Source: a virus (taxonomy: Duplodnaviria > Caudoviricetes). From it: a DNA stretch of 64,000 bases. Position 1 is the first letter of the stretch, and every line of letters begins with the position of its first letter. Location: the IMG/VR virus record IMGVR_UViG_3300023174_000037; one strand, 5' to 3'. Both the position numbers and the translations under genes were made by a program. Shown here in pieces: positions 15,295-54,048 of this stretch. The notes under the pieces are model-generated. The model had not been told where the DNA came from, did not search any database, and saw only the letters and a list, made by a program, of their open reading frames with translations.

Positions 15295-16449
15295 TTACTT
15301 TCCTTCTTTAAGTTTGTATAATTCTGTAAAAATTTTACTGCTGTCTACTCCGCGCCTCTGATCCATTACGGCTAATTGTTCAAAAGAATTTGACAAATTC
15401 TTTTCAATTGGTTGTCTTATGTAGTGTAACATATTTCGATAACTATCTTCAAGTAGATATCCTGGATTCTCGTTGATTTTTGATTCCAATTTTAACTTTA
15501 ACAAGTGTAACACATTTTCTGGTAAATTCCTAATGTTTAGGTAATCAGGAGTTAGTAGTGCTCCGATGATAAAACTATTATTATGAAATCCTAGGCCTTT
15601 AAGGTAATCCACATACCCAAATACACTATTGTAATTTAACAAAAACCATAACATATTAAAACTTATCTTATGATCAAGTTGTCTAATTGTGTTCAAATTA
15701 TCTAAAAAATCCTGCCATCGGCCTCCAAAGCGTATGTATTCAAATTCATCTTCTATGGTTTCTGCACTCACAGTCCAGTGAACATTTTTAAAACTGCATA
15801 CAGCATCAAACACTCCGGTATCGACTTTGCTAAGATTAGTGTTTATCCTGAGATTAACATCGGGATTTAATTCTTTGAGTAGTTCTAAATTTTCCTTCAT
15901 CAACAATGGTTCACCGCCGGCTAGATACACATGCTTAAGATTTTTAGCGTGTCGGTAAAGATATTCTCTAAAATCTTTCTGTTGTTGTTCTGTTGGTGTC
16001 GCCCTAATAACATTTAATTCGCTGGCCCACTTACTACTGAAATCTGGGCCACAATAAACACAGGCAAAATTACACAAATTGGTCCATCGTACATCAATGG
16101 TTTGTAAATCAAAATTGTTAGGTCGGTAAGTATCCAGTGGTGTTTTTTTAAATTCTCTTATATAAAAAATTCTATCACTGATAATATCAAAACCTTCTTT
16201 ACCGTGTTCTAGATTGTAACAAGTGTGACAGCCGGCAGCTGGTTGATTATTAATTATATTAGTTTGTTTAGTGACATTAACAGGTCCTAACAGTATTTCT
16301 TCAATGGTGTTGTCTTTGATATTACCCAATCCACCAGTTGTAAAATCACTACGAATACAATTTTTTACTTTGCCATCAAAGTTATACATTAGTCCTGTCC
16401 ACGGCATAGGACAAAAATGTTTATTTGTTAGAATATCTTTTGGATTCAT
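15295..16449 (-). CDS. Radical SAM protein with N-terminal SPASM/Twitch-like domain
   Basis: CNFACVYC, GGEPLL, N-terminal FCPMPW...CHTC. Confidence 0.88.
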   Translation of the reverse strand: MNPKDILTNKHFCPMPWTGLMYNFDGKVKNCIRSDFTTGGLGNIKDNTIEEILLGPVNVTKQTNIINNQPAAGCHTCYNLEHGKEGFDIISDRIFYIREFKKTPLDTYRPNNFDLQTIDVRWTNLCNFACVYCGPDFSSKWASELNVIRATPTEQQQKDFREYLYRHAKNLKHVYLAGGEPLLMKENLELLKELNPDVNLRINTNLSKVDTGVFDAVCSFKNVHWTVSAETIEDEFEYIRFGGRWQDFLDNLNTIRQLDHKISFNMLWFLLNYNSVFGYVDYLKGLGFHNNSFIIGALLTPDYLNIRNLPENVLHLLKLKLESKINENPGYLLEDSYRNMLHYIRQPIEKNLSNSFEQLAVMDQRRGVDSSKIFTELYKLKEGK

Positions 16450-16991
16450 TGATTCATTGGTCCTAATGATATTTCTGGAATTGATAAATTATTATTCTTG
16501 GCCATGTCGAATAAATTTAACAATGTTCTAGCCCAGTTGTTGACATCAGCAGCTGGTGGCGTTGTTTTGTCAGGGCTAGTAGCAATGTTGCCAGGACGAA
16601 CTATAGTAATTTTTACTTTAAGTTTACGATGTCGTATTTGCCGCACTGCTTCTTCTAAAGTAACTTTTTGCAAACGGTAATGATCCATGCTTAGATCAGT
16701 CAACGACGACACTGGTTCTTGTGTCATCATAGTTGAAATTACTATGATATGCTTTTTAGTTCCCTGCCAACGATTGGACATTTCAAACAACAACTCAGTT
16801 TGTGCATATCCGGCTTGTGCGTTGTTGACAAAAACATCGCAAGGTTCAATTTGATCACAAATTTTAGGAGTGTTGCGAATATTGTTGCCTTCACGCTGAC
16901 TAAGGCCAACTACTTCGTTGCCGCCGAGAACATATTCTTTAGCAAGAGCTTGTCCTATGCCTGCGGTGTGTCCGGTAATTGCTATTTTCAT
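16446..16991 (-). CDS. Short-chain dehydrogenase/reductase
   Basis: TGHTAGIG, NNA, YRLQK (YxxxK), RPG. Confidence 0.85.
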   Translation of the reverse strand: MKIAITGHTAGIGQALAKEYVLGGNEVVGLSQREGNNIRNTPKICDQIEPCDVFVNNAQAGYAQTELLFEMSNRWQGTKKHIIVISTMMTQEPVSSLTDLSMDHYRLQKVTLEEAVRQIRHRKLKVKITIVRPGNIATSPDKTTPPAADVNNWARTLLNLFDMAKNNNLSIPEISLGPMNQ

Positions 16992-17863
16992 GATATGCCT
17001 CTTAGTTGTTTTTGTTTTGCTATATATTCATCTCTAGCACGAACATCAGTATTATCAACACTTAACTCAAAAGGCATTTTTAAGTAAGCGTAACTATGAT
17101 CAATGTTGTGTTCTCGAGCAAACTGTTGAATATTTGGCAGGTCGTCTACATTCAGTATACTAACTGTTGTCCATAAATTCAATGTTACTGGCATTGTTTT
17201 GTATGTCATTAAATTACGATAAAAATCTTGCCATGGTATTGGCCAACGCACAAAATCATGAACTGCTCCAATACCATCACAACTCACTGTGACAGTGACT
17301 TCGATGCCACAATTGGCTATGTCGACCAGCTCAGTCAATATTGTGCTACAATTTGTATTAAGTCGCAGTGTTTTAAGGTTAGGTGGTAAATTTTTTAATA
17401 GTTTCTTGTAATTTTTACTGTAACTGGGTTCGCCACCGTTAATATCCAGATGCACGATTCGTTCTTGTGGTAGGCGCCAGAATTGATCTGTGTTATTGAT
17501 TATAGGAAATCCAGGACCCGTTAAACTTCCTATTCTGGTGCTTAAATTTTGATTACAAGTTTGGCAAGCGGCATTACATAAATTATCTAATACACCACCA
17601 ACTTGCAGGTAATCTCTCTGTGCAGTTTGCTCATCCACTGCTGTTGCATATACTCTTATGCTGTCAGGTTCGGTTTCTTGACATCTGACACATTCTTTGG
17701 GCCAGCGGTCAAACTTCATTAACTCTTTTGTATTTGCTAACCAAGAACTTGCCTCCATATCTGCCAATGAAGCATATTGTGGAGGATTGACCATGTGTCC
17801 ACAGCGACTAACTGTGCCATTGGGATTAAAACGAACAAAATGGTCTAGTCTAGGACAATACAT
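16988..17863 (-). CDS. Radical SAM protein with N-terminal SPASM/Twitch-like domain
   Basis: CNAACQTC, NGGEPS, N-terminal YCPRL...RCGH...CVRC. Confidence 0.85.
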   Translation of the reverse strand: MYCPRLDHFVRFNPNGTVSRCGHMVNPPQYASLADMEASSWLANTKELMKFDRWPKECVRCQETEPDSIRVYATAVDEQTAQRDYLQVGGVLDNLCNAACQTCNQNLSTRIGSLTGPGFPIINNTDQFWRLPQERIVHLDINGGEPSYSKNYKKLLKNLPPNLKTLRLNTNCSTILTELVDIANCGIEVTVTVSCDGIGAVHDFVRWPIPWQDFYRNLMTYKTMPVTLNLWTTVSILNVDDLPNIQQFAREHNIDHSYAYLKMPFELSVDNTDVRARDEYIAKQKQLRGIS

Positions 17864-19660: not shown

Positions 19661-22600
19661 TTACTTCTTCATTCCTGAAAGTTCTTTGAGCCGGTCCAAA
19701 AAGCTGGTATCTTTGTCTACTGCTTGCATTTTACCAGAATGTCCATACTGCCCGGCCAAAGACGAACGACTTTCTTTAGTGGCTGAATCTGGATGTGGCT
19801 TGCCGTGGGCACGTTGATAGAAATCAAATTCGGCTTTGCGATCCTTTTGTTCAATATCTTTGCGAGTTAACGGTGCTTGGCCTTGTTTGTTACGTTGAAT
19901 AGTTGGCCGTTCGTAATCTCTAGGATTTTTAGGATCAATTGCTTCATCGGTGGTACCACCGCCTATCGCATCACCAATAGAATTGCCTATTGATGCTCCA
20001 CGAATTGCTCCAGCTGGGCCGCCTACTAATGCTCCGCCAATTCCACCAAGTGCGGCACCTACTAAACCTTCGTCGGTTTGTTCTTGATTTTCTCCCAAAA
20101 TTGCGTCAATAAGTTTTTTGCCACCGTATAACAGAGCTAGTAATAATCCAATCGGTATTGCATACTTCACTGCGGCTGATGCTAAGTCTCCAATAGTTTT
20201 TCCGTCAACTGCGGTGCCTACGGCTTTGGTAATTGCCTCAGCGGCCGATCCAATGTCGTGATATACTTCGCCTACTCCGGTACCTAGACTGTTCGCCAAG
20301 TCTGTGATACCTTGGTAAGCACCAACTCCAACACCGATTGGCACTGCATTTTTGGCGGCTATCTCTGCACCTTGTTTGGCCACTTGACCAACTGCTTGTG
20401 CACCTTGTTTGGCCACTTGACCAACTACCGGAGCCGCAGATTTAGCTGCCTGTCCGGCTACTTGTGCTCCTTGCCCGGCCATTTTACCTATTGCCGGGCC
20501 AATTTTTGATAGTAACGGCATTAATGCTCTGGCACCAGCGGCTAGAGCTGGGCCAATGAATTCATTTAATTGTTCATCTTCATGAATTCCGGCGGCTTTT
20601 TTCATTTTGATTAATTCGTCATCTTCGTCTGTTTCTTTCCTACCAGCCGATGATACCGCGTTCATTGCAGATCCAGCAATAGTAACTGGCGCTCCTACAA
20701 CATCACCAACAACTTCGCCAGCGCCTTTGGCAAAATCTTTTACAATGCCCTCGTCGGTTTCTTGTTCACCAACAAGGCCGCTTAAGGCGCTGCCAATTGA
20801 GCTACCAATACCATCTAGCGCACCAGATCCTGCGGCATACCCTAGTGCGCCGCCAGCCAACGCCGGAACAATAGGATTGATACTATCGTCATCTTCTTCA
20901 TCGTCTTTTTCAACTAACGCAGATCCGCCCTTGGTGAGGTGTTGACCTAATCCAGCACCAACGATGCCGCCAAGTGGTCCGCCTAACATTGTACCAATTG
21001 CTCCGCCGCCTAGTGTGCCAAGAATGCCTTCATCAGTTTCTTCTTCGCCTACCAATGGAATACTTAAAGATTTTCCGCCACCACCTAGGCCTTGTGCTAC
21101 TGGATCTAATAGTTTTTTAACAATTTGACCGGTTGAATTTTCTTTGTTTTCTTCCATACCGGCATGATCGTATTCGGGTGCTGGGCGTTGTTTAGCCGGC
21201 ACACCAGCAATTTTTAATATACCTGATAACGAGTCTTGATATTCGTCGGCATAGTCGCCCACACTTTCACGTTCCATTCCGTAGTCCTCATCTGGAATGC
21301 CTGGACTACGACCACCATAACCACTAATGCCTAAGTCTGCACCAAAACGATCAGCTACCCATTCATATGGGTCTCCGTCGCGGGCTTTTTTAGTACCATA
21401 TGGCATGTCGTCAAAGTAATAGTCATACAGGGCATTGTGCAGTTCGTCACTGACTTCGCCTGTTTCTTCAAAGTCCTTGACATCACGTTTGAATGTATTG
21501 AGGATGTGTTGGAATGTAGAACCTGTGCTGTCGGTAAGAACACTTTCATTCATTGGTTCAAGATCAGCAGGATTAGTTGCTTCAGGAGGATTCATTTCAG
21601 CAGTAGGATCAATTTGCAATTGGTCTAATACCGTACGCACTTCGGGCCAATCACTGAGTTCTTGCAAGCGATCCATGATCACTTGACGTGCATCAGCATT
21701 GGCATCACGATCAGCTAATTCTTCTAACTGATCAAACAACTGATCGTCGCCAACAAGTCCATACAATTGTTCAGTGACATTGGTAGCATCAGCGCCCACT
21801 GGTAAATCTTTACTTAGAAGCTCGATTAGTTTATCTTGCTTCTCTGGAGTATCTGGCAATGACCAGGTTCCTTCTGTTAGGCGCTCTGCCCAAGCTTCAA
21901 ATATATTGGCTTCTTTCATTGCTGTTCCTTGTTGTTGTATTTTGGCCAGCAAAGGTAATGCTGACTCAATTCTTGTGTCAATGCTTTGCTTGACAAAAAG
22001 ATTTTTTAAACTTTCAATCACTACGTCTTGCTCTGAAATCTCAGCCGGACTCCATGATTCAAAATATGTTGCGTATCCAGTCCGGGTACCAAGCCCTTTG
22101 AGACTGCGTTGCAAGTTTGCTTGATACTCTTGAACTTGTTCTAATAATTGCTGTGTATCGCCTTCGAAAATTTGTCCTTGATTGGCTCTGCGGAAACGAC
22201 TCAATACATTTAGCTCTGTGACCATTTCGGCAATGTGATTGCCTCTGGCATCGTAAGGACGTCCACCTTGACGCACATGCTCCAACATGGCACGTCCGCC
22301 AGTTAGGCTCTTAAATGGTAACTTGTAACGTTCACTGTCGGCTGTTTCAATAAACAGGCTTTCGATATAACGGAAACGGGCATCACCCTCAGCAATGTTT
22401 TTCTTATGACGAATCATCAGTCGAGCTTCAGTGGCGGCGCCGCTCCAGCTAGTTGTCCGATTACCAGTCCATGATTCAAACAGGCCTTCTTTGATAGCCG
22501 CTTGCCCTTGCATACTGTAACGCAAACGATTTAAGTTTTTGATACCAAACGTCATGAAGTTTCTCACGGCAAAATTTTTCAACTGTTCTAAGAAACTGAA

Positions 22601-22855
22601 CCAGTCGTTTTTGTCGTCACCTTCCATGGTACGTCCCACATTGTCTGAGCAATAAACTTCAAGGTCGTTGTCATCGCCCAGCATGATTACCACTGTGCCA
22701 TAATCTTTGCCCGAGTGGGCAACAAAGTCAAAACTGTATATTTCAGTTTCTGCAGGGTCGGATGCAGGTTTACCAGAACTGTCCAGCATTTCTGGGTCAA
22801 AATCTCTACTGACCAGTAGATCAAATAATTTACGAGCGGGTGTGATATCTGCCAT
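19661..22855 (-). CDS. Large putative internal head protein with glycine-zipper segments
   Basis: 1064 aa; follows gp17; own TAAATA 22863-22868; repeated TDE/LNE motifs preceding GxxxG-rich hydrophobic stretches. Confidence 0.6.
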   Translation of the reverse strand: MADITPARKLFDLLVSRDFDPEMLDSSGKPASDPAETEIYSFDFVAHSGKDYGTVVIMLGDDNDLEVYCSDNVGRTMEGDDKNDWFSFLEQLKNFAVRNFMTFGIKNLNRLRYSMQGQAAIKEGLFESWTGNRTTSWSGAATEARLMIRHKKNIAEGDARFRYIESLFIETADSERYKLPFKSLTGGRAMLEHVRQGGRPYDARGNHIAEMVTELNVLSRFRRANQGQIFEGDTQQLLEQVQEYQANLQRSLKGLGTRTGYATYFESWSPAEISEQDVVIESLKNLFVKQSIDTRIESALPLLAKIQQQGTAMKEANIFEAWAERLTEGTWSLPDTPEKQDKLIELLSKDLPVGADATNVTEQLYGLVGDDQLFDQLEELADRDANADARQVIMDRLQELSDWPEVRTVLDQLQIDPTAEMNPPEATNPADLEPMNESVLTDSTGSTFQHILNTFKRDVKDFEETGEVSDELHNALYDYYFDDMPYGTKKARDGDPYEWVADRFGADLGISGYGGRSPGIPDEDYGMERESVGDYADEYQDSLSGILKIAGVPAKQRPAPEYDHAGMEENKENSTGQIVKKLLDPVAQGLGGGGKSLSIPLVGEEETDEGILGTLGGGAIGTMLGGPLGGIVGAGLGQHLTKGGSALVEKDDEEDDDSINPIVPALAGGALGYAAGSGALDGIGSSIGSALSGLVGEQETDEGIVKDFAKGAGEVVGDVVGAPVTIAGSAMNAVSSAGRKETDEDDELIKMKKAAGIHEDEQLNEFIGPALAAGARALMPLLSKIGPAIGKMAGQGAQVAGQAAKSAAPVVGQVAKQGAQAVGQVAKQGAEIAAKNAVPIGVGVGAYQGITDLANSLGTGVGEVYHDIGSAAEAITKAVGTAVDGKTIGDLASAAVKYAIPIGLLLALLYGGKKLIDAILGENQEQTDEGLVGAALGGIGGALVGGPAGAIRGASIGNSIGDAIGGGTTDEAIDPKNPRDYERPTIQRNKQGQAPLTRKDIEQKDRKAEFDFYQRAHGKPHPDSATKESRSSLAGQYGHSGKMQAVDKDTSFLDRLKELSGMKK

Positions 22856-22865
22856 AGTAGTGTAT

Positions 22866-24431
22866 TTAGCGCCTTACGCTGATGAACGGCATAGGAGGAA
22901 TTATATTATCTCCGTGGTCTCTTAGCTGGGTATCGATGCTGTTATCATAGGTTTGTAACAGTTGTAGCATACGCACCGTCAGCACTGTGGCCATTACTAG
23001 GTCGTCAGTTTCACCTATTTTGGCCGCATAACTTACACCGGCAGCCACAAAGGTTTTAAGCTCGCTGACCATGCTTGCACTACGTATTTTCATGCGACCG
23101 GATTCAATCAAGGTTTTTAATTTGTTACAGGCCGCCAGCTTGGGTTTATTTGTAGTATTAAATCCTTTGCGGTATCGTCTATTTCCACCCGAGTGTGGAT
23201 CGCTTAAAAAGTAGCCTTGTATGTTTTCTTCGCCATATTCATCGATACTGATCAAGGCAGCTTCACCAATGGTATTGTTTTCTATACTAAAATATATTCG
23301 TTGTGGGTCTTTGACTGTTTCGTTTATGTGAGCACAGATGCTGGCCAATATACGAACCTGTTCAGGTATGGGTGTTCTGTTATGACGCCATTCGGCCACT
23401 TGTTCTGTGGTTTCTGCTTCAAATATTTGTATAGCGGCTGCATCCCCACCCGTGCCTAAGCTAGGATCAAGACCAATCACATAGGTACGTCCTGCTCGGG
23501 GTCGTTGATACCATCGAACTTGTCCAGTTTTATACAAGGGTTCATGTCCTTGTAGATCAATAAGTTTAGCAGGAGCAATCAAGGTTTCATCATTGATGAT
23601 GAATTCACAACCCATTTCTCGACGGAAACGATCTTCACCTAACTGTGCTCGCTGTTCGCTGGCCCACTTTTCATCACGATCTGGATGTTCATTCCAGTAG
23701 CTACGATAACTCTTAAATCCATTGATGCCAACGTCAGTAGGATTGCCAAATTCGTCCTCGCACTTGAGAGCACCTTTCCAAAGCAGGGCAAACTGATCTT
23801 CGTCTGAGTTCGGAGTGCTAGTGATAATTGCCTTACCACCAGTGGCCAACGTAGGACTGATACTAGTCCAGAACTCTTTGGCAATGCCAGGGCGCACGAA
23901 CGCAAACTCGTCACAGTATAGTAAGGATATACTCATACCGCGTCCGGTATTTTCTGTTGTGGTGGTCGAAACTATGCGACTTCCGTTTTCAAAGTCTAGA
24001 TTGCCTTTGTTGTAACTGGTAACACCGGCACGTATATGATCTGGGCACAACTCGTACGCATAGCGAATACGTTGCATGATTTCTTGTGAGCCGGTGTATT
24101 TGTGTGCGGCAATAAGGATTGTGCTGTCAGGGCGAAACATGGCCACCCATAACAGATATCCAGCGGCACTGGTTGATTTACCAGTTTGTCGAGGCATCAT
24201 ACTGATACTGAATCGATAGTTGTGGTAAGTGTCTATCAGTCGCTTTTGATAGTCAAACGGATGATACAGCATCTTGCCCTTGACCGGATGCTGTATATGG
24301 AAGAAGTTGTCCATAAAGTATTGTGGCCCAGTAACAGGGTCAGCGCATTTTACAAACTCCTCCAACTGTTGATCCGTGAAGGCTGTCTTCTTGTATGGTG
24401 TTTTAACTAAAGTTGATTCGGTTTGGCTCAT
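22866..24431 (-). CDS. gp17: Terminase large subunit (T4 gp17-like)
   Basis: PRQTGKS, LLYCDEFAF, STPN, GLDPSLG, DDLVMA. Confidence 0.95.
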   Translation of the reverse strand: MSQTESTLVKTPYKKTAFTDQQLEEFVKCADPVTGPQYFMDNFFHIQHPVKGKMLYHPFDYQKRLIDTYHNYRFSISMMPRQTGKSTSAAGYLLWVAMFRPDSTILIAAHKYTGSQEIMQRIRYAYELCPDHIRAGVTSYNKGNLDFENGSRIVSTTTTENTGRGMSISLLYCDEFAFVRPGIAKEFWTSISPTLATGGKAIITSTPNSDEDQFALLWKGALKCEDEFGNPTDVGINGFKSYRSYWNEHPDRDEKWASEQRAQLGEDRFRREMGCEFIINDETLIAPAKLIDLQGHEPLYKTGQVRWYQRPRAGRTYVIGLDPSLGTGGDAAAIQIFEAETTEQVAEWRHNRTPIPEQVRILASICAHINETVKDPQRIYFSIENNTIGEAALISIDEYGEENIQGYFLSDPHSGGNRRYRKGFNTTNKPKLAACNKLKTLIESGRMKIRSASMVSELKTFVAAGVSYAAKIGETDDLVMATVLTVRMLQLLQTYDNSIDTQLRDHGDNIIPPMPFISVRR

Positions 24432-25549
24432 AATATACTTGCTAGCTCAGGCCATAATTGTTCAAAGCGACCTATCATACTAGAATGATATTTACTTTCA
24501 ATTTCAGCAATGTGATTTATAAATTCTGGTAAGACATTGTTATTGGCCTGCTGATGTCGGGATTCGGTCTCTTGTAAGAAGTTACGTTGGGCATGATCCA
24601 AATTGTGATTACTCAATACTTTTTGTAATTCTTTAAGAGCCAACTGTCTAACATCAGGTCCAAGTTGTAAGGGATCTAAATAGGCTGGATGATACAGGCT
24701 TTGCCAATGCACAGGCACATTGGCATCATGTGCCCAAGAAATCAATTCAGATAGTCTAGTAGCATTGTAAATGTTGTAAAGCGGATGTATGCCTAATCTA
24801 TGTCCTGAGCAGGCCTGTATTGCTTTGATGTTGCGTTCAATTTGATTCCATGTACCGCCATAGCGCACATATTCAAATCTATCGCCTGTGTTGTCAATGC
24901 TGATGTTCCAACCAACACGCTGACGTTCGGCCAGTTTGGCAAATATTTTGTTAGTGCTCAAGTCTACCCCAAGGTTGGTTATAACGTCAACTTGGCAATC
25001 CACAGGAATTGCATCCAACAAGCGTTCGTTTTCTTTCAGCAACAGGGGTTCGCCACCAATTAGAGCCACTTTCTTAATGTGGGCTTGATGCTGTTCAAGA
25101 TAGTCGCATACCTGGTCTGAGTAGGGTCTAGTGCCCGACTGCACTGATAACTGTTTTAAACTGGCCCACTGACTGCTGCTGTGTTCATTGCAATAGTTAC
25201 AGCTGAAATTGCAAGTGGTGTTCCAGCGTATATCAATCAGCACCGGATGATGTTCTGTATCTGTGGCTTGGCCGGCATCAAAGCCAGGATTTATTCTGTT
25301 GTGCCAATCACGTTCGCTACGACCATAACGCTCGGCCTGCACACAATTGTGGCAATACTGGGCATGTGGGCGGCCTTCACGCAGGGTTTGTCTGACTTCT
25401 TGTAGGGCAGAGCCGTGTAGAATCTCCTCAATAGTTTGGCTGTTTAAGTTGCCCAACATATTAGGATCACCTGCACAACAGGTTTTGACACTGCCTTGTG
25501 GATTGATGTGCAAGCCCCTCCATGGAGCTGCACACAAGAAGTTGCTCAT
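24428..25549 (-). CDS. Radical SAM protein with N-terminal SPASM/Twitch-like domain
   Basis: CNFSCNYC, GGEPLL, N-terminal LCAAPW...KTCC...CHNC; ATGA overlap with gp17. Confidence 0.88.
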   Translation of the reverse strand: MSNFLCAAPWRGLHINPQGSVKTCCAGDPNMLGNLNSQTIEEILHGSALQEVRQTLREGRPHAQYCHNCVQAERYGRSERDWHNRINPGFDAGQATDTEHHPVLIDIRWNTTCNFSCNYCNEHSSSQWASLKQLSVQSGTRPYSDQVCDYLEQHQAHIKKVALIGGEPLLLKENERLLDAIPVDCQVDVITNLGVDLSTNKIFAKLAERQRVGWNISIDNTGDRFEYVRYGGTWNQIERNIKAIQACSGHRLGIHPLYNIYNATRLSELISWAHDANVPVHWQSLYHPAYLDPLQLGPDVRQLALKELQKVLSNHNLDHAQRNFLQETESRHQQANNNVLPEFINHIAEIESKYHSSMIGRFEQLWPELASIL

Positions 25550-25571: not shown

Positions 25572-26282
25572 CTACTGCCCTAAATTAAACTGCATTCCAG
25601 TTGCTTGCTCTACTACAGCTATTGGCACTTGATACTTGGGTAAATCTGCCACAGGAAGTGGCGCATTTGGCATCAAGTATGCTTGAACATTACGACTATT
25701 CTTTTCAATAATAATTTTATACAGGCGTGTTGGAATGCCTAAGCCGTTGCCCACAACAGGATGTCCAGTATCAAATATACCGCCAGAAATAATGTAAAAA
25801 TCTGTGCCAGGAGCAGTTGCCCAGGTACGTTCCCAGGTTTCTAACTGTTTCCAAATGCCGCGGTTATTGTTGGCCACTTGTGCCACCATGTTGCTTAAGA
25901 AGAAACTCTCACTCATGATAGCATCGTTCTGTGTGTTGTTGCCAGCAGGTGCCATATGACCACGGTCATGTGTGCGGCCTACAGTAGCATAGTCAGCCAA
26001 TGTAGCACTGCATTCGGGAGTTACAGCTGGGTCTGGGCGGAAGTTGTCTTTGCGTTTGGCAGGACCGGTCATTGCGGCTACTGTTAAATGTTCAAACACT
26101 GCCACCGGTGCCTTGACACTACACCTATGGATCACAGCATAGTTTGTATGGCAAATTTCTTGATCACCTGGTTGAGGTTGATAATGCGGTGTGCCGTTGA
26201 CTGTAAACTGTGGGCATTGCTGATTGATTTGTGCCAGAGCCGCAAGTGGAACAAAGAGCAATACTAATAATAACTTTTTCAT
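25572..26282 (-). CDS. DNA/RNA non-specific endonuclease (NucA/EndA family) with signal peptide
   Basis: DRGH active site, SFFLSNMVAQ...NNRGIW, PTRLYK; N-terminal MKKLLLVLLFVPLAALA. Confidence 0.9.
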   Translation of the reverse strand: MKKLLLVLLFVPLAALAQINQQCPQFTVNGTPHYQPQPGDQEICHTNYAVIHRCSVKAPVAVFEHLTVAAMTGPAKRKDNFRPDPAVTPECSATLADYATVGRTHDRGHMAPAGNNTQNDAIMSESFFLSNMVAQVANNNRGIWKQLETWERTWATAPGTDFYIISGGIFDTGHPVVGNGLGIPTRLYKIIIEKNSRNVQAYLMPNAPLPVADLPKYQVPIAVVEQATGMQFNLGQ

Positions 26283-26665
26283 CTTGGATAGCCTTTGAAT
26301 GCCTTTACAGGGCTAGCTGTGTCCACAAACGCCGGCTCTACACTTTTAGCTGTGCTTACTAGATCCTTGCCGCCGGGTGTATCGGTCATAGACAAAGCCT
26401 GATCAATAATGGGTTCAATGCTGGCATTCATGCCAATCACAACGCCGTGTTCGCCAAATGCTGTTTGGGCCGTCCATTCAGGCATGTCTTTGGTCAAGCC
26501 ATCAGTTCCGGCATCACTTCTTGCACGAGCCATGGCCACTCCAAAACGATAATTTTTGTAAGGATCGGCTGCACTGAGCCCGGGAATCACAAAGGTATAA
26601 CGCATTGGCTCAGCAATTTCCGCTGGCAATTCACGTTGTTCTGTGATAAACTCACGAGCTCTCAT
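26279..26665 (-). CDS. Putative internal head protein (paralogue of 26662..27036)
   Basis: N-terminus MRAREFITE, C-terminus SPVKAFKGYPR. Confidence 0.6.
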   Translation of the reverse strand: MRAREFITEQRELPAEIAEPMRYTFVIPGLSAADPYKNYRFGVAMARARSDAGTDGLTKDMPEWTAQTAFGEHGVVIGMNASIEPIIDQALSMTDTPGGKDLVSTAKSVEPAFVDTASPVKAFKGYPR

Positions 26666-27036
26666 CTTGGATACCCTTTGAATGCCTTTACAGGACTGTT
26701 GGTATAAGTTGAGTCTAATTCTTGACTGTCATTGTCACCATGATTCAGATCATAAGCCTCGCTGCCAGTAGCTTGCAATGCCTGCTTCAGCATAGCCGCT
26801 TCTTCGTCTGTGTAAGGGTGCGCTGTGTTGTAACGTCCAGCCCAACTTTCTGTGTCTAGATCCAATGGCTTTCCTGATCCATCAGCACGGGCCACTGCCA
26901 TCATCACACGATTTAATTCGTAGGTACGATCATACCCGCCAATGTCACGAAACTTGGTAAGTCCTCGAGTTCCAGCTTGACGACGGTTGCCAATCTTGCC
27001 AACATGTTTCTCTATTAGAAACTCTGAGGCTCGCAT
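26662..27036 (-). CDS. Putative internal head protein (paralogue of 26279..26665)
   Basis: N-terminus MRASEFLIE, C-terminus SPVKAFKGYPR. Confidence 0.6.
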   Translation of the reverse strand: MRASEFLIEKHVGKIGNRRQAGTRGLTKFRDIGGYDRTYELNRVMMAVARADGSGKPLDLDTESWAGRYNTAHPYTDEEAAMLKQALQATGSEAYDLNHGDNDSQELDSTYTNSPVKAFKGYPR

Positions 27037-27526: not shown

Positions 27527-29650
27527 TTACCCTTTGTAATTTTGCCAAGTCTTGAACAAACTACGTTCAAGTGCAATTGACTCTTCCATACTGGCCTGCC
27601 GGCGCAATTGACTAGCAACAACCGGAACTGTTGTTTGTCCAGTTGACTTAGAACCATTCAATCCGCCCGAGTAAGTGCGGAGGTTAGGATCTGCATCTAA
27701 TGTTTCTGTGTTGGTTGGCCAGTCTGGTGCATTTTCATCAACAACTTCTGCACAACCACATGGACTACCACCGCATGATGGGCAAGGCTTAGGAATTTGA
27801 TTGTCAAGGCCGGCTAATTTTAACAACATCATTAACTTGGCTGCATCTTCGCCGTCGGCTTGTATAGTAATTCCTGGCTCCATGTTACCGTCGCCACATT
27901 CTTGCATCTTGGACTCGATAGAAATGCTTTCGTTTAGAGCCTGCGTGAATTGTCGGTTGTAGTTTTCGTAAACACCTTTGCCAAAAGTCATACCACCCTT
28001 GCTTGACTTGCCACTTGCAGTTGCAGTAGCTACGCTACCAGACACGGTTGTTTCGTCAACTTTTTCTTCTTTCTTATCGTCTTTCTTTTCTTTACGATCT
28101 TTCTTGTCATCGTACTCAATGTCTTTGGTAACTTTCTTGCCGGCCTTTTCAGCTCGGTTGTCGTCTTTACCTTTGTGACCTTCGTCGTATTCGATATCTT
28201 TGGCTACTTTCTTGCCGGCTTTCTCTGCCTTGGTATCTTCTTTGTCAGTAGACTCTTCATCCACTGCTGTTTTGCCTTTGGACATTACCTTGATTACTTT
28301 GGCAGCTTTTCTAGCCGCAGGAGCAAGTTTATCAAAGAATTCGCGCTTACCAGCTTCAACTTTTTGTTCGTCAAGTTCTGGTTCCATACCTTGTTCTGCA
28401 CCACGCTCGTGTGATGAAATAATGTAATCACTTACACTGGTCATCATGCCTTTGATCTGGCCAATTTTTTCAATTACCCAAGTTGGTAAATTTTCTGCGT
28501 CTCGTAAATGCTGTTCAAGTTTTTCTGCATGACGAATAACAGTGTGCAAAGAATCTTTGGTCATGTCGCCTTCTTGATCATACTCGCTGGGATTGTATCC
28601 TTCACTGCTCATGTTGCTAGGACGAGTCATCATAACGCCGTCGCTGTCGAGCCCTTCTTTGGTTTTTTCTTTCTTGACACGCTTGCCGTCAACAGCTTTG
28701 TATTTGTGACTGCCTTTGGTTACACGCTCTTCATCTTTTGATCTAGCAGATGGCGGACGTCCTTTTTTCTTAGGACCGTCGGATACCGCAGCTTTTTTCT
28801 TGTTCTTTAAGTTGCCATGCTCATCATAGTCATCGTCATTGCCGGTGTCGTCACGGTCACTACGATAGCCGTACTTTTTGTGACGGTTGCGTTCGCTTTC
28901 ACTGTCGGTATTGCTACCTTTCATTGAACCTTGTGCGCCTTTTAGCAATCTCATATCCAATTCTTTAAGTGGCAACTCTTTGCCGCCTACACGAATCTTC
29001 TCACCTTTTTGTATACCATCACGCTTGGCATCCACTACAGCTTTGCTAAATGCATTGCCTTCGTCAGTCATGCCCTGACTCTCGTCATACTTGTCGTACC
29101 GGTTGCGAATGTTGCTCATGGTCTTAGCACTGGCATTCTCACGACCAGCCTTTTGCAAGGCTTTCATACCCGCATCACCGTATTTCTTTTTGCCAATGGC
29201 TGCTTGAAATGCTGATTCTTCCATGTTGTTACATTCACATGGTGAGCAATCACAAGCAGGACACATGCCTTCTTCGAGATTGCTGGTATCTTTAAATGTC
29301 TTGTCGCCTAATTTAAAACTGCCACCTTTTGGTGTTTTGGCCAATGCACCAGTAAATGCATTACCTTCTTCCATGTCGCCTTCTTCAACTTGACCTTTGG
29401 CTCGCATCTTTGCCAACTGTGCGCCGGCAATACGGGCACCTTTTTCACCACCGCCTGTTTTCTTGGCCAACGCTGCAAAACCTGTAGTAGCATTGTTGTG
29501 CTTGCCTAGGTCACGCTCATTAAGTGCTTGTGCCAATGAACCCTTCTTGGGTGTCTGAGGAACAGCAGCCGAATGCTCTGCAAGATGTTGAGCATCTTGC
29601 TTGTCAGCCAGTTGAGCCAATCGTTTGTTTAGGTCGTAAAAAAATGTCAT
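27527..29650 (-). CDS. Charged low-complexity protein, putative prohead core/internal protein
   Basis: Start MTFFYDLN with GAGGA RBS; many xxE motifs; internal repeats EGNAF and EKAGKKVxKDIEYD. Confidence 0.6.
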   Translation of the reverse strand: MTFFYDLNKRLAQLADKQDAQHLAEHSAAVPQTPKKGSLAQALNERDLGKHNNATTGFAALAKKTGGGEKGARIAGAQLAKMRAKGQVEEGDMEEGNAFTGALAKTPKGGSFKLGDKTFKDTSNLEEGMCPACDCSPCECNNMEESAFQAAIGKKKYGDAGMKALQKAGRENASAKTMSNIRNRYDKYDESQGMTDEGNAFSKAVVDAKRDGIQKGEKIRVGGKELPLKELDMRLLKGAQGSMKGSNTDSESERNRHKKYGYRSDRDDTGNDDDYDEHGNLKNKKKAAVSDGPKKKGRPPSARSKDEERVTKGSHKYKAVDGKRVKKEKTKEGLDSDGVMMTRPSNMSSEGYNPSEYDQEGDMTKDSLHTVIRHAEKLEQHLRDAENLPTWVIEKIGQIKGMMTSVSDYIISSHERGAEQGMEPELDEQKVEAGKREFFDKLAPAARKAAKVIKVMSKGKTAVDEESTDKEDTKAEKAGKKVAKDIEYDEGHKGKDDNRAEKAGKKVTKDIEYDDKKDRKEKKDDKKEEKVDETTVSGSVATATASGKSSKGGMTFGKGVYENYNRQFTQALNESISIESKMQECGDGNMEPGITIQADGEDAAKLMMLLKLAGLDNQIPKPCPSCGGSPCGCAEVVDENAPDWPTNTETLDADPNLRTYSGGLNGSKSTGQTTVPVVASQLRRQASMEESIALERSLFKTWQNYKG

Positions 29651-29654
29651 TGTA

Positions 29655-30263
29655 TTATCCTCTTGGGTTGGCACCAGTTGCTGGACGTGGTGGGCGTTTT
29701 ATTTTAGTCATTGGACTTGTGTTGTCCATTGGAAAATCGTTTGTTGTTTTTGCAGGGGGTGTCTTGCCACCGGCCACAGTAAAGTCACTACGATATGCGT
29801 TCTTCAATACAGCATGTTTATTGTATGGAGCACTGTAATCTTTAATCAGAGCTTTTTGTTCTGCATCGGGTGCAGGGTAATCTGTGTCCGTCAATAGGTT
29901 TTTATTTTCAGCTTCTACTCGTTCACGCTCACTATCCATACCATCTTCGTGTGGCACAGTCAACATGATAATACGATTTGGATCTAAGAACAACAGCTGA
30001 GCAATTTCTTTGATCTGCGGCTCAATTGCTGGATATCGAAATTCTACATCCATGCTGGTCACGCTGTCGTTGCTGTGCTTAGGAAAATCAGCCGGTTTAA
30101 GCTGTACCGGAGTAGTCCGTGGCTTGGTGATTTTTACAACATCAAACTGTTTGAGTCGTTCTTCCAACTGTTTGATAAAATCAGGTGCAACATCACCTAC
30201 AATTTTAATTCTGTAATTGTAAGTTCTTTCGCTTTCTGCGAGGTATTGTTGAAAATTTTTCAT
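29655..30263 (-). CDS. Putative head-associated protein
   Basis: N-terminus MKNFQQYLAE; TAAATA 30282-30287 and RBS. Confidence 0.6.
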   Translation of the reverse strand: MKNFQQYLAESERTYNYRIKIVGDVAPDFIKQLEERLKQFDVVKITKPRTTPVQLKPADFPKHSNDSVTSMDVEFRYPAIEPQIKEIAQLLFLDPNRIIMLTVPHEDGMDSERERVEAENKNLLTDTDYPAPDAEQKALIKDYSAPYNKHAVLKNAYRSDFTVAGGKTPPAKTTNDFPMDNTSPMTKIKRPPRPATGANPRG

Positions 30264-45555: not shown

Positions 45556-48500
45556 TTAGGTTAGCACACCAAAATCCACGGGCTCTAACACTTCTCCTCC
45601 GGGATCCATCATGCTGTAAACTTCACCAAGATTTACTCCAAACGCATCGGTAGCCGATGACTCAAACGGTATTTCCTGCGAAGTTTGTACGAAATTGAAG
45701 CTAAGATCAAAATTTCCAATAGATCCTGGAACAGGGCTTACTGTGCTGTTAGGATAGCTTGTTGCTGAACTGCCACCACCACTTTGATCTACCCATGCTA
45801 GATTCCCAGCGCCGTTGGTGCTTAGGACTTGATCTGCATTGCCATATCCAGTTGGTAGTGTTAAAAGGTAATCGCCTGTAAGGGCATTGGGTGCCCGTAA
45901 AGAAATAAAATTACTGCTGTCAGTGTCATAAAATTTGACCTGTTGTCTTGATTGAATTACAATGTTACTACTGGCTATGAATGTAGATCCAACAACATTG
46001 CCAGTGGCACTTACAATACCAGCGGTTAAAATGTTACCACCTGTAACGTTACCCACAGCACTGATATTACCCGAAGTTGTGACTATGCCTGTGCCATTTG
46101 GAGCTAACGCAATATTTCCATTTGAGCCTGTAATAATTGTCAATGCACCTGTATCTACAATGTTACCTGTTACATTCAGATTGTCACCACTTACATTGCC
46201 AGTGGCACTTACAATACCAGCAGTTAAGATGTTGCCGCCGGTGACATTTCCACTAGCACTTAAACTACTACCAGTTATTACACCGCCAACTATAGATGCC
46301 GCTGTTGTTGTGCCAGTTACACTGGTTGATGATCCGGTTATTACTCCACCTACTACACTGGCAGCAGTGGTAGTTCCTGTGACACTTGTGCTTGTTCCTG
46401 TTATAACTCCACCCACTACTGAGGCACCTGTTATTGCACCTGTTACTGACACACTTGAACCAGTCATTACTCCACCTACTACACTGGCAGCAGTGGTAGT
46501 TCCTGTGACACTTGTGCTTGTTCCTGTTATAACTCCACCCACTACTGAGGCACCTGTTATTGCACCTGTTACTGATACCACGCTACCCACGTGACTTGCA
46601 CCAGTAACTGTACCACTAACAGATAACGAACTTCCAGTGATTACGCCACCTACTACGGATGCAGAAGTTACAGTGCCAGTGACACTTACTGTGGTTCCTG
46701 TGTGATTGGCAGCTGAGATATTACCACCAGTGATGTTGCCGGTTGAACTAATTAATCCACCGGTTAACACGTTACCACCAGTTATGTTACCACTGGCACT
46801 GGTCACGCCTTGCACGTTTAATCCATTACTGGCTACCCAAACATTGGATGAACTGCTATAGGTCAACGAAATATATTCACTGCCAGCCGGACCAACTCCA
46901 ATACCACCACCATTGGCAGCTGCAGCTGTGGCCGCATTATTGGCCACATTAATCGTTAAGTCATTAGTAGTAACATTATTACTGTTGATATAGGTCACAT
47001 TACCAGTGACACTCAAGTTACCAGCGATAATCACATTGCCGTCTGTTCCGCCAGTTCCATTGGGATCAATAATTAAAGTCTGACCAGAACTGACAATGTT
47101 AGCGCCAGTGATTGTAATATTGCCATTGGTCAATGCGGTAGAGGCCACAATATTAGCACCTGTTACATTACCGGTAACACTGGCAGAGCTACCAGTTATA
47201 ACACCACCCACAGTTGAGGCAGCTGTTTGTGTACCAGTGACACTTGAACTTGATCCTGTTATTACTCCACCTACAGTGCTGGCAGCTGTTTGTGTACCAG
47301 TGACACTGGTTGAACTACCAGTTATTACACCGCCTACAGTGCTAGCAGCTGTGACCGTTCCACTAACGCTGGCACTTGAACCAGTTATTACACCGCCCAC
47401 AGTTGACGCGGCTGTTTGTGTTCCAGTGACACTTGTTGATGTACCAGTAATAACGCCACCTGCCACTGAGGCGGCTGTCACTGTGCCACTAACACTTACT
47501 GTAGTTCCTGAATGTAATGTAGCATTGACATTGGCTCCGCCCAGCACATTGCCACCTGTGATGTTGCCAGTGGCCGATATCAATCCACCTGTTAATACAT
47601 TACCACCAGTTACATTACCCGACGCACTAAATGCACCACCATAAGTCAACGGTCCAGAGCCAGCTCGACCCAGTGCTGTGCCGTCAGCATTGCCAAATAC
47701 AATGTATCCGTTTAAGGCACTTTGCTGGCCACGAACACTCATGGTATCAGCAACGTTAATGTCACCAATCCAGGCGTCATCGCCTACTTTGAAGTTGGTG
47801 CCAGCACCGTTGTTGGTTGCAGCTATCGAGTTGGCTGTAAGACCTGCTGTGGTAAATGTTGCCACTGCGGCAGTTCCAGCAATTCCAACCGTGACGTTGC
47901 CGCTGGCAGCAACAACCACATTTGATGTTCCGTTGACGATTGAGTTGCCAGCCGAAGCAACAACTCCAGTTAATTGACTACCGTTACCAATAAAGTAACT
48001 GCCAGTTACATTACCTGTGGCACTGACACCTGCACTTTGTGGAAATGTTATTACGTTGCTGGTCGGGCTTGCCTGAAGTAGAACGTTGGTTGCACCGATA
48101 CCATTTTGATAGAATATTCTAAAGACATTGCTAGAATCAGTGTCTAGGTTCCAGGTTGAATTGGCTTGTCCTACTATTCCGCCTATACCGGCCCAGCCTA
48201 TGACCAACTGTCCGCCTTCGGCTCCTGTAGAGTTAATAATCAAATTGTCTGTAGCTGATACTACCTTGCTGGCAATGATATTTGCTGCGTTAAGATTGCC
48301 AGTGGCACTGATCAAACCGCCGGTTAAGACGTTACCACCAGTCACGTTACCACTCAATGAGGAAGAACTACCTGTGATCACGCCGCCCACAGTTGAAGCA
48401 GCTGTTACTGTACCAGTGACACTGGCACTAGATCCAGTTATAACTCCGCCCACTGTTGATGCGGCTGTTTGTGTACCAGTGACACTAGTCGAAGAACCAG

Positions 48501-51500
48501 TAATTACACCGCCCACAGTGCTGGCAGCTGTTACCGTTCCGCTTACACTGGCAGAACTACCGGTTATAACACCACCTACAGTGCTGGCGGCAGTTTGTGT
48601 ACCAGTGACGCTAGTCGAAGAACCAGTAATTACACCACCCACTGTCGAAGCGGCTGTAACTGTGCCTGTTACGCTAGCACTTGAGCCTGTGATTACTCCA
48701 CCTACCGTACTGGCAGCTGTTTGTGAACCAGTGACACTGGTTGAGGTACCAGTTATGACTCCGCCAGCCACTGATGCAGCTGTAACACCACCAGTAGCAC
48801 TGACTAACCCACCGGTTCTTATATTACCACCAGTGATATTAGCAACGACCGATGCACCAGTTGAATCAATTTTTACTCGTTCAACTAATCCATTGGTACC
48901 GGTACTACCAGGAGTTTTTGTTTGAAGACTAAGATAAGCTGAATAATTACCGTCATCAATTCCGGCTATTCTGGCTTCTGCGTTGGCCGCGGCAACTGAA
49001 ATTTGATAGGTGTAAAAATCAATTGCCGATCCAGCACCTGCACCACCGCCTGTATTAATTAAATTTAACTGGACTTTTGTTGCAGCCGCTAAACTGTTGT
49101 TAAGATTTAATGGAGCAACAGTATACCATGTTGGCTGTGCTGGCACAGAGCCAAAGAAAACATTACCTATAAAAGTAGATATGTTGGCTGATCCTGGAAT
49201 TGTTATGTTACCACCGGTGATATTACCAGTGGCAGATATTAAACCACCTGTCAAGACGTTACCGCCAGTTACGTTACCACTTACACTGGCACTGGATCCA
49301 GTTATGACTCCACCTACTGTGGAGGCTGCTGTTTGTGTACCAGTAACACTAGAACTTGACCCAGTGATCACACCGCCCACAGTCGATGCGGCTGTGACTG
49401 TTCCAGTAACACTTGAACTGGATCCAGTTATAACTCCACCTACGGTACTAGCGGCAGTAGCAGTGCCGGTTACAGAACTACTAGATCCAGTTATTACACC
49501 ACCAACAGTGCTGGCAGCTGTAACTGTGCCGGTTACACTTACATTAGTTCCAGTATGATTAGTGGCACTGATGTTGCCACTGGTGATGTTACCGGTAACA
49601 CTTAACAATCCTGTTACGTATTCACCCGTTGAGGCAAATACTACTACGTTACTTGTTCCACCTATGCTGATGTTGGCATTGCCACCGCTGGTGCCAACAT
49701 TGGCTTCACTGGTTCCATTGTAGATTTTGCTGGCAGTGATACCGTTGGCGTAGAATACGTTGCCTAAGAAATAATTTCCTGTGATGTTGCCGGTGGCACT
49801 TACTACACCGCCAGTTAAGACATTGCCGCCAGTTACATTACCTGTAACTGATGTTGAACTGCCGGTTATAACTCCACCAACCGTACTGGCTGCTGTAACT
49901 GTTCCTGTTAATGATGCACTGGTTCCAGTTATCACTCCGCCCACTGTTGAAGCAGTAGTCACAGTTCCTGTTACACTTACGTTGGTTCCTGTGTGATTGG
50001 TGGCACTGATGTTGCCACCGGTGATGTTACCGGTTGCACTTAATATTCCCTGCGATGATAACCCGTTAGTTGCTACCCAGATATTTGATGTGCTGTTGTA
50101 GGTCAAACTAATATATTCACTGCCAGCTGGGCCAACGCCAATACCACCACCGTTGGCCGCGGCTGCAGTGGCTGCATTGTTGGCCATGTTAATGGTTAGG
50201 TCATTTGTAGTGACGTTGTTACTGTTGATATAAGTTACGTTACCTGTAACACTCAAGTTGCCTGTGATGATCACATTGCCGTCGGTGCCGCCAGATCCGT
50301 TTGGATCAATAGTCAATGTTGGACCGGTACTGACAATGTTAGCGCCAGTGATAGTAATATTGCCATTGGTCAATGCAGTAGAGGCTACAACATTACTACC
50401 TGTTACATTACCAGTAATACTGGCACTTGTGCCAGTTATAACACCGCCTACTGTGCTGGCGGCAGTTTGTGTGCCAGTGACACTGGCAGAACTACCAGTT
50501 ATCACTCCACCCACAACACTTGCGGCTGTTACAGCACCAGTTACTGATGTGCTTGACCCAGTTATCACTCCACCCACAACACTTGCGGCTGTTACAGTGC
50601 CACTTAGGCTAGCACTGGATCCAGTTATTACACCACCCACAGTTGATGCGGCAGTCACCGTTCCTGTTACTGACGCCGAAGTTCCGGTAATTACTCCACC
50701 TGCCACTGAGGCGGCTGTAACGCCACCTGATACACTGGCACTGGCACCTGATACTGTGCCAGTTACTGAAGAACTTGATCCGGTTATAACACCACCCACA
50801 GTTGAGGCAGCTGTGACTGTACCAGTAACCGAAGAACTTGAACCAGTTATGACACCACCCACAGTTGAGGCGGCTGTAACTGTGCCTGTAACCGACACGT
50901 TAGTGCCTGTATAATTTGTTGCTGAAACGTTACCACCAGTTATGTTACCACTGGCACTTACCACACCAGTAACATATTCGCCTGTAGTGGCAAACACAGC
51001 TACGTTTGCAGTTCCGCCTACACCAACTGTGATGTTGCCACCCGAACTGACTACTGTAACATTACTTGTACCGTTGTTGATATTGGCCACACTGGTAATA
51101 ACACCAGTAAGCGAAGCACCGTTGCCCAAAATATAATTGCCAGATACATTGCCAGTTGCTGACACTACGCCACCTGTTAAGACATTACCGCCAGTTACGT
51201 TACCACTTACACTGGCACTGGATCCAGTTATGACTCCACCTACTGTGGAGGCTGCTGTTTGTGTACCAGTAACACTAGAACTTGTACCTGTAATGACCCC
51301 ACCCACTGTCGAAGCAGCAGTTTGAGCACCTGTTACACTGGTTGAAGTTCCGGTAATTACACCACCCACTGTTGAGGCTGCTGTTTGTGTACCAGTGACA
51401 CTAAGATTACTCGTTACGAAAACGTTACCTGGAGCAACTGTATCTATAGAAATTCTTATTGAGGCATTGGCAGTGTTTGCAGTGTTTGCTCCAATATACA

Positions 51501-54018: not shown

Positions 54019-54048
54019 TGTAGTTCCAATAATATCCAATATTTAGCC

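Follow-up and report, generated by a model that had tools for sequence, protein, structure and literature searches.

The 64,000-nucleotide (nt) stretch of DNA analysed here (the window; IMG/VR record IMGVR_UViG_3300023174_000037, Duplodnaviria, Caudoviricetes) encodes on the minus strand, at 19661-22855, a protein of 1064 amino acids (aa), P0001, whose C-terminal half alternates between acidic spacers and hydrophobic, glycine-rich cassettes. The gene starts 10 nt 3' of the large terminase (TerL) gene (22866-24431), in the same orientation, and lies between it and a gene for a gp32-like single-stranded DNA-binding protein (SSB), with radical-SAM genes and uvsX also on the 3' side. The 5' side, again co-oriented, holds genes for sheath, tube and gp4-like head completion as well as a run of small unknown genes. 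The identical protein occurs on at least six metagenomic contigs, one of 513 kb, and the two loci inspected come from different samples, indicating a real gene of a giant uncultured phage and no assembly artefact. The source is a T4-related jumbo phage of ~0.5 Mb. Here we describe the modules of P0001, their junctions and their relatives, and discuss the evenly poised possibility that P0001 is a late head-associated cargo polyprotein, which would be packed into the head, cut into hydrophobic pieces and ejected to act on the host membrane.

Modular layout of P0001

The first 330 residues of P0001 (21866-22855; this and all further parts are on the minus strand) form a conserved alpha/beta domain that bears the family signature. 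AlphaFold models it with a predicted local distance difference test score (pLDDT) of 75, and no known fold was found for it: Foldseek gave no match in the PDB at E <= 0.001, and the best VIA-align wide alignments (Z 6.6) covered sub-fragments and lay within noise. Its relatives in BFVD are uncharacterised phage proteins, one of them labelled 'Large polyvalent protein-associated domain'. An acidic helical region with a 'STGSTFQHIL...YGTKKARDGDPYEW' module follows (residues 331-609; 21029-21865), containing a first internal scaffold-like motif (LSGILKIAGV, residue 543) and the candidate cleavage sites MNE↓S (435-437) and MEE↓N (567-569; arrows mark predicted cuts). Gly-zipper cassette 1 (610-649; 20909-21028), GILGT...GGSALVE, is a helix-Pro-helix GxxxG hairpin placed after EETDE↓ and running up to L-V-E↓K; the predicted piece of 40 aa is 38% Gly, with a grand average of hydropathy (GRAVY) of +0.78. 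Cassette 2 (650-702; 20750-20908; predicted piece 53 aa) joins an acidic spacer to a Gly/Ala-rich unit, SINPIVPALAGGALGYAAGSG..., and ends in QETDE↓. The odd cassette 3 (703-744; 20624-20749; 42 aa), GIVKDFAKGAGEVV..., is a different, less hydrophobic unit ending in KETDE↓. A linker of 21 aa (745-765; 20561-20623) carries the second scaffold-like motif (LIKMKKAAGI, residue 748) and leads to the canonical junction Q-L-N-E↓F, beyond which lies the most conserved module, a hydrophobic core module of 157 aa (766-922; 20090-20560; GRAVY +0.54), FIGPALAAGARALMPLL ... KYAIPIGLLLALLYGGKKLID, with a strongly hydrophobic KYAIPIGLLLALLYGG helix and an L-G-E↓N end. Cassette 4 (930-971; 19943-20068), GLVGAALGGIGGALVGGPAGAIRGASIG..., is a second Gly-zipper hairpin of 42 aa, placed after EQTDE↓ and ending in TTDE↓. 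The chain closes with a conserved basic tail module of 93 aa (972-1064; 19664-19942), which ends in GQYGHSGKM..KDTSFLDRLKELSGMKK and has the scaffold C-terminal motif in its last 12 residues.

A sequence-only reading of the window had proposed, for 19930-21090 (residues 589-976 of P0001), a protease-processed polyprotein in which TDE or LNE alternates with GxxxG-rich hydrophobic segments. The alternation is borne out, and every quoted context matches: TDE stands at residues 607, 700, 742, 927 and 969, and LNE at 763. The mean expectation from a composition-preserving shuffle is 0.32 TDE for the whole of P0001 and 0.09 for residues 560-1064; the observed five were reached in none of 20,000 shuffles of P0001, and TDE occurs only six times in total in the rest of the window's coding capacity, ~19,000 aa. 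The five are written in differing codons (ACT GAT GAA, ACC GAC GAG, ACA GAC GAA and others), indicating that the motif is maintained at the protein level and does not reflect a recent DNA repeat; DNA repeats or microhomologies as the origin of the TDE junctions are ruled out on the same ground. Further canonical sites, LVE↓K (647-649), LGE↓N (920-922) and MNE↓S (435-437), had gone unremarked, and with LNE↓F (763-765) and MEE↓N the canonical junctions in P0001 number five.

The hydrophobic GxxxG segments of that reading are also real, with Kyte-Doolittle 19-residue means of 1.2-1.4 for the Gly-zippers (borderline for membrane spans) and 1.95 for YAIPIGLLLALLYGG, except that its third segment (GIVKDF..., cassette 3) contains no Gly-zipper. 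At this position close homologues have a GWKG Gly-zipper, among them P0005, whose aligned C-terminal region is 94% identical. Cassette 3 as a frameshifted GWKG cassette was considered and rejected, the other frames being closed and unrelated. The Gly-zippers keep their GxxxG periodicity, their central Pro and the length of the hairpin, and they resemble the Pfam glycine-zipper models. In Pfam, no segment of P0001 reached threshold, and the matches to SseC (E = 0.2), DUF456 and Bacteriocin_IIc (E = 0.16) were at chance level. The conserved parts of the family, namely the N-terminal domain, the scaffold-like tail and the 157-aa core module, had been overlooked.

The C-terminal half of P0001, searched against 5.8 billion proteins, matched 278 clusters, all metagenomic and unnamed; 120 of these were aligned. 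These homologues share a fixed frame around a hypervariable middle. Their N-terminal 330 residues are often >90% identical and their last ~35 residues conform to GQYGHSGKM..KDxSFLDRLKELSGMKK, yet homologues with N-domains >90% identical differ in the content of their middles, in total length (686-1239 aa) and in the number of Gly-zipper cassettes (0-4). Such hypervariability between frames that are almost the same suggests that the middle faces the host and is shaped by conflict, not that it serves a structural purpose, and would be typical of conflict-facing cargo. In an alignment of close homologues of P0001 (A1), cassettes are gained and lost as whole units, with break points at x(T/V/M)(D/E)E↓G: cassettes 2 and 4 are missing from P0012 and P0013, cassette 1 is missing from P0010, and P0016 has an extra copy of cassette 4 at the front of the cassette region. 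Variation in cassette number among homologues, which had been suggested as a check on the polyprotein idea, therefore exists and falls exactly at the junctions.

Junctions, prohead protease and candidate targeting signals

Across the 120 homologues, 161 Gly-zipper starts were tallied, a set selected on Glu before the cassette, so that only residues further upstream are informative; the residue three before the cut is T in 83, M in 33, L in 25, V in 9, I in 4, F in 2 and Q in 5. One of T, M, L, V or I occupies this position in 154 of the 161 junctions, and the helix-capping residues S, D and N were not seen there. One and the same junction reads TDE, VDE, MEE, MDE, TVE or LGE in different relatives. 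At junctions where some homologues have Thr, others have the hydrophobic residues typical of canonical sites, which argues that Thr plays the same role.

The head genes of this phage lie beyond the window's end and were reached by walking from the last gene of the window to a locus with genes identical to the window's end (L006); a 48-kb near-copy of the window in IMG/VR is without head genes. The head module of L006 encodes a Portal_T4 portal, a 73-aa protein, an acidic 282-aa protein, a Peptidase_S77 protease, a 366-aa scaffold and a Gp23-family capsid protein, and the baseplate-hub cluster adjoins the portal. The protease (P0126, 215 aa) matches PF03420 (Peptidase_S77, T4 gp21 family) with 81.2 bits against a cut-off of 27, and its N-terminus reads MARYLKE↓H. 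In the capsid propeptide, LLE↓G and LRE↓N come directly before the Gp23 domain, and capsid propeptide sites are likewise L-x-E in PA5oct, Phosso, Atu_ph07 and fHe-Yen9-04. The 282-aa protein, encoded in the portal-protease gap (L006:15064-15912, minus strand), is extremely acidic over its first 180 residues and then Pro/Lys/Gly-rich; it holds the position of the T4 prohead-core proteins gp67/gp68 and has no family match.

A profile of the core module (residues 745-975, alignment A3) was compared with 1.84 billion cluster representatives and found 183 clusters, of which ~25 are stand-alone proteins of 150-270 aa. These consist of a leader, a short spacer, Q-L-N-E and, immediately after it, the start of the hydrophobic module. 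The leaders are of the MRAxEFIxE or MKIxEITE type (e.g. MRASEFIKE, MRAKEFINE, MRAREFIVE, MKIREITE and MLIREIVE), the same type as the starts MRAREFITE, MRASEFLIE and MKNFQQYLAE of three of the window's small late genes. In T4, the 10-residue leader of IPIII directs proteins to the capsid, and gp21 cleaves it off; Asp in place of the Glu prevents this processing in T4 (PMC9026906). The core-module junction has, three residues before the cut, L in 56 cases, I in 5, V in 4 and T in 1; Glu precedes the cut in 67 of 68. A feature search of the ESM Atlas with residues 762-930 returned only unnamed viral clusters, with scores <= 0.81. A further metagenomic protein, P0137, has the leader of the 715-aa gene product of the window (MTFFYDxNxRLAxLA), followed by a Gly-zipper cassette, KLDE↓F and the core module. 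The module is thus delivered in three ways, behind a short removable-type leader, behind a second kind of leader, and embedded in P0001, with a Glu junction each time, as expected of protease-released head cargo; such a pattern would be hard to explain if the junction were a mere loop.

P0001 itself lacks a capsid-targeting leader (MKTYQEFIAE type, ~10 residues, ending in Glu), its start MADITPARKLFDLLVSRDFDPE being part of the folded domain. Its C-terminus, ...SFLDRLKELSGMKK, has the motif of the same phage's scaffold C-terminus, ...NVIDLKRLAGL. In the window, in L006 and in two loci of phages that are cultured relatives (L001 and L002), the only proteins with an L(A/S)G(L/I/M) ending were P0001, the scaffold and the Phosso homologue of P0001 (...IARLRKLAGI). 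Scaffolds end in LRRLAGIK in PA5oct, LRRLAGIEK in Phosso, LKRLAGIKK in Atu_ph07 and ISRYAGIKKKR in fHe-Yen9-04. Internal copies of the motif lie at module ends, namely the two in P0001 given above and one in the 715-aa neighbour. We infer that the tail may be a scaffold-type docking helix that brings P0001 into the prohead core. Complex prediction for the C-terminal tail with the capsid protein gave a score of 0.01, which is no answer and is evidence neither way.

The clade's scaffolds (L006:13305-14405; L008-L011) have a conserved (L/I)x(K/R)(R/Y)(L)AG(I/L)(K) tail throughout. Several records label them 'Rad50 ATPase' or 'hypothetical protein', the former of which looks like a coiled-coil mis-annotation.

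The N-terminal domain connects P0001 to cultured phages. By tblastn it aligns with PA5oct-like phages (26% identity, aa 7-309, E = 3e-18) and with a 976-aa protein of Phosso (31% identity over aa 60-223), and P0001 matches the virion structural family phrog_13484 (E = 5e-7). The record of the PA5oct homologue, gp278, marks its detection in virions by ESI-MS/MS (tandem mass spectrometry with electrospray ionisation). The gene order TerL-X-SSB-UvsX is common to the P0001 phage, PA5oct and Phosso, and the PA5oct and Phosso versions of the protein have no Gly-zippers.

Neighbouring genes

Several other genes in the window have starts or junctions of the kinds described above. A sibling candidate cargo gene (27527-29674, minus strand) encodes a 715-aa protein with a leader MTFFYDLNKRLAQLA...HLAE, repeated (M/T)(D/E)EG↓NAF junctions and an internal LMMLLKLAGL, and looks like a second cassette-built head cargo protein. 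This protein is lysine-rich, with leader MTFFYDLNKRLAQLADKQDAQHLAE, two (M/T)(D/E)EG↓NAF(T/S)xA repeats and Cys-rich CPxC-type stretches (CPACDCSPCEC and CPSCGGSPCGC). Two paralogous small genes at 26279-27036 (minus strand) start with the T4 capsid-targeting-like leaders MRAREFITE and MRASEFLIE. They adjoin each other (26279-26665 and 26662-27036), encode proteins of 128 and 124 aa with an identical C-terminal SPVKAFKGYPR, and have no family match in PHROGs or Pfam. A 202-aa gene product (29655-30263, minus strand) also begins with a capsid-targeting-like leader, MKNFQQYLAE.

Three radical-SAM/SPASM-type genes are found at 24428-25549, 15295-16449 and 16988-17863 (all on the minus strand), one between a secreted-type nuclease gene and the terminase gene and two between the SSB gene and uvsX; they could conceivably act as peptide- or nucleotide-modifying enzymes in the vicinity of the cargo genes. 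The nuclease (Endonuclease_NS/phrog_14168; 25572-26282, minus strand) is encoded in the late head/packaging operon and has an N-terminal hydrophobic, signal-like sequence, MKKLLLVLLFVPLAALA. Two large open reading frames (ORFs) on the minus strand, one of 2827 aa with no PHROG match (45556-54039) and one of 1354 aa with a fibre-like C-terminus (54099-58163), are probably giant fibres; they contain [LIV]xE only 1-2 times per 1000 aa, compared with 15-25 in other proteins.

Interpretation and significance

In the proposed mechanism, P0001 would enter the prohead core via its conserved N-domain and/or its scaffold-like C-terminal tail, carrying between them independent cassettes joined by [L/I/V/M/T]-x-Glu junctions. 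After shell assembly, the gp21-type serine protease would cut P0001 after the junction Glu and release hydrophobic peptides of 40-160 residues, whose new N-termini would be the hydrophobic helix itself. Until then, the acidic spacers would hold the precursor in solution and prevent it from harming the cell that makes it. Once freed, the pieces would be retained in the head, exit with the DNA and insert in the host inner membrane, where they could aid the passage of DNA or protein or dissipate the membrane potential. These steps differ in strength. Packaging in the head is quite probable, cleavage at the canonical L-x-E junctions is likely, and cleavage at TDE↓G is a proposal that could as readily hold as fail. 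Ejection and membrane action on the host, by analogy, are possible if somewhat doubtful; the membrane step is proposed from the composition of the pieces and their likeness to glycine-zipper effectors. One of these is Tde1 of the type VI secretion system (T6SS), whose GxxxG motif permeabilises the prey's cytoplasmic membrane (PMC10240207). A more specific version seems to us rather unlikely: the heads of T4-related jumbo phages would hold a diversifying arsenal of Gly-zipper and hydrophobic-helix peptides freed by the protease, recruited by the scaffold-type (K/R)xLAG(L/I/M) tail as a second, hitherto undescribed signal for head targeting, and after ejection the peptides would form an inner-membrane conduit or ionophore that lets DNA and cargo proteins through or disarms the host by collapsing its membrane potential. 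Such an arsenal would give bacteriocins and T6SS membrane effectors a counterpart delivered by the capsid.

The sequence-only reading is partly supported: its protease-processed polyprotein gains from the S77 protease, the junction-bound cassette variation, the stand-alone modules and the PA5oct virion homologue, and is left with a Thr in TDE where Leu would be expected. Its likeness to a bacteriocin precursor holds as an analogy of layout only; the cassettes are not accompanied by a leader peptide, by an enzyme for their modification or by an export system. The DNA-channel or depolarisation function that it assigned is a guess.

Several observations weigh against the cargo polyprotein, besides the selection on Glu in the junction tally and the borderline hydrophobicity of the Gly-zippers. 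[LIVM]-x-E is common in any protein, and most of its 24 occurrences in P0001 are inside the folded N-domain. TDE has Thr three before the cut, whereas the T4 gp21 sites and the capsid-propeptide sites seen in this clade have Leu there, and the scaffold, the capsid protein and the acidic core protein of L006 are all free of TDE. Against the Pfam glycine-zipper clan (PF13488, PF13441 and PF05433) the P0001 cassettes score 12-16 bits, below the cut-offs of 24-29. The homologue P0035 lies just over two of these cut-offs (PF13488, 25.9 bits, cut-off 25; PF05433, 25.6 bits, cut-off 24.2), and the P0001 cassettes themselves are Gly-zipper-like in layout without reaching the family thresholds. The AlphaFold model of residues 745-975 (47 sequences) consists of helices only, with a pLDDT of 47, too low for a fold search, and confidence only at ~aa 865-910; such low-confidence helices would fit membrane- or oligomer-dependent folding and prove nothing. 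In a tblastn search of 50,697 phage records, the core module of P0001 and of the stand-alone protein P0212 was unmatched, no cultured phage carrying the module. Lastly, many T4 core peptides exit the prohead after cleavage and are not retained (PMC9958956).

All three rival explanations are less well supported than the cargo polyprotein. One is that P0001 is an uncleaved multi-span ejection protein, with the whole chain or a large C-terminal fragment acting as a multi-pass inner-membrane channel and TDE marking topology or helix-capping loops. The regular spacing of hydrophobic hairpins with charged loops between them would suit such a channel, as would a Thr that is non-canonical for T4-type proteases, and podoviruses have large internal ejection proteins that act whole (PMC8954989). 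We nevertheless consider it quite unlikely, since the Thr is swapped for M, L, V and I and not for the capping residues S, D and N, the core module is also found by itself, with a removable leader and then an invariant L-x-E junction before it, and the gain or loss of a single cassette would flip a multi-pass topology. A tail tape measure or tail-channel protein, in which the Gly-rich segments are the tape measure's membrane segments or flexible low-complexity linkers, is very unlikely indeed. Tape measure proteins often have Gly-rich hydrophobic stretches, and the AlphaFold helices in this region are of low confidence, but a tape measure must match tail length, which is at odds with the 686-1239 aa found behind near-identical N-domains. 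The gene also adjoins the terminase gene and not the baseplate-hub cluster, and the conserved GxxxG periodicity, central Pro and hairpin length, together with the resemblance to the Pfam glycine-zipper models, also count against this reading.

The remaining rival accepts the head location and the cleavage, and dispenses with any action on the host: P0001 would be an auxiliary, scaffold-like prohead-core protein whose Gly-zippers pack helices and whose degradation peptides leave the head. The tail in common with the scaffold and the two internal copies of its motif agree with this, as does the location of the gene in the late head/packaging operon, and T4 gp22, gp67 and gp68 are cut to small peptides that presumably escape the prohead (PMC9958956). 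It too strikes us as quite improbable, because N-domains >90% identical are combined with different middles and lengths, unlike a structural core component, because the stand-alone leaders are of the type found on T4 internal injected proteins and not on scaffold, and because mature virions of PA5oct still contain the N-domain homologue.

The putative cargo polyprotein can be compared with several known systems. With the T4 internal proteins IPI, IPII, IPIII and Alt it shares a Peptidase_S77 protease, Glu junctions with, at the canonical ones, a hydrophobic residue three before the cut and a repertoire that varies between related phages, and the T4 leader MKTYQEFIAE has its counterpart in the stand-alone modules and the three window genes (MRAxEFIxE/MKNFQQYLAE). 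It differs in having, in place of an N-terminal leader, a 330-aa conserved domain and a scaffold-like tail, in carrying many cassettes per chain, and in a payload rich in Gly-zippers and hydrophobic, where that of T4 is soluble and basic; T-D-E, which is no documented gp21 site, accounts for most of the junctions in P0001. The ejection and inner-body proteins of phiKZ, 201phi2-1 and SPN3US are likewise cut after Glu in short motifs, with redundant sites per propeptide (PMC9026906), but belong to another lineage, have the motif S/A/G-x-E and have no Gly-zipper cargo described.

Polyvalent (Iyer et al. 2017, PMC5512222) and MuF-type proteins also combine a conserved head-incorporation part with shuffled cargo and are predicted to be injected with the DNA. 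Their cargo consists of enzymatic or DNA-binding domains presumably released by embedded peptidases, whereas P0001 would be processed by a separate prohead protease, and no glycine-rich or transmembrane modules are mentioned by Iyer et al. (PMC5512222). P0001 has no MuF or other Pfam domain, compared with the at least two effector/enzymatic or large polyvalent protein-associated (LPD) domains by which polyvalent proteins are recognised. GxxxG runs and a helix-turn-helix hairpin of ~40 residues are shared with Gly-zipper_Omp, Gly-zipper_YMGG, Rick_17kDa_Anti (2TM), Tde1 and Caulobacter CdzC/CdzD, which are bacterial and do not occur as cassettes of a phage polyprotein; the likeness of P0001 to them is compositional and sub-threshold. 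In Tde1, the Gly-zipper that permeabilises the target membrane is required for delivery by a phage-tail-like injector (PMC10240207). Multi-cassette bacteriocin precursors similarly hold repeated core peptides with recognition sequences between them in one precursor, but the cassettes of P0001 are of several kinds and not one repeated core.

Precedents exist for internal proteins processed by a protease, for leaders that target the capsid and for injected polyvalent proteins. The literature searched contained no phage precedent for glycine-zipper virion or ejection proteins, and no description of a Gly-zipper/hydrophobic-cassette polyprotein payload, a T-D-E junction variant or a C-terminal targeting tail that copies the scaffold. 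We know of no membrane-inserting head cargo in T4-type phages. The modules touch on a standing question, namely how DNA crosses the inner membrane in contractile-tailed phages. If they are cut free and ejected, they would constitute a new class of injected phage effectors, in which a soluble precursor masks membrane-active peptides until the capsid protease frees them. The scaffold-like tail would be a second, portable capsid-targeting tag beside the T4 leader at the N-terminus, with which foreign proteins could be loaded into phage heads. In metagenomes the family is common (278 clusters for the C-terminal region and 183 for the core module); it is without a cultured representative and so points to the kind of phage to isolate.

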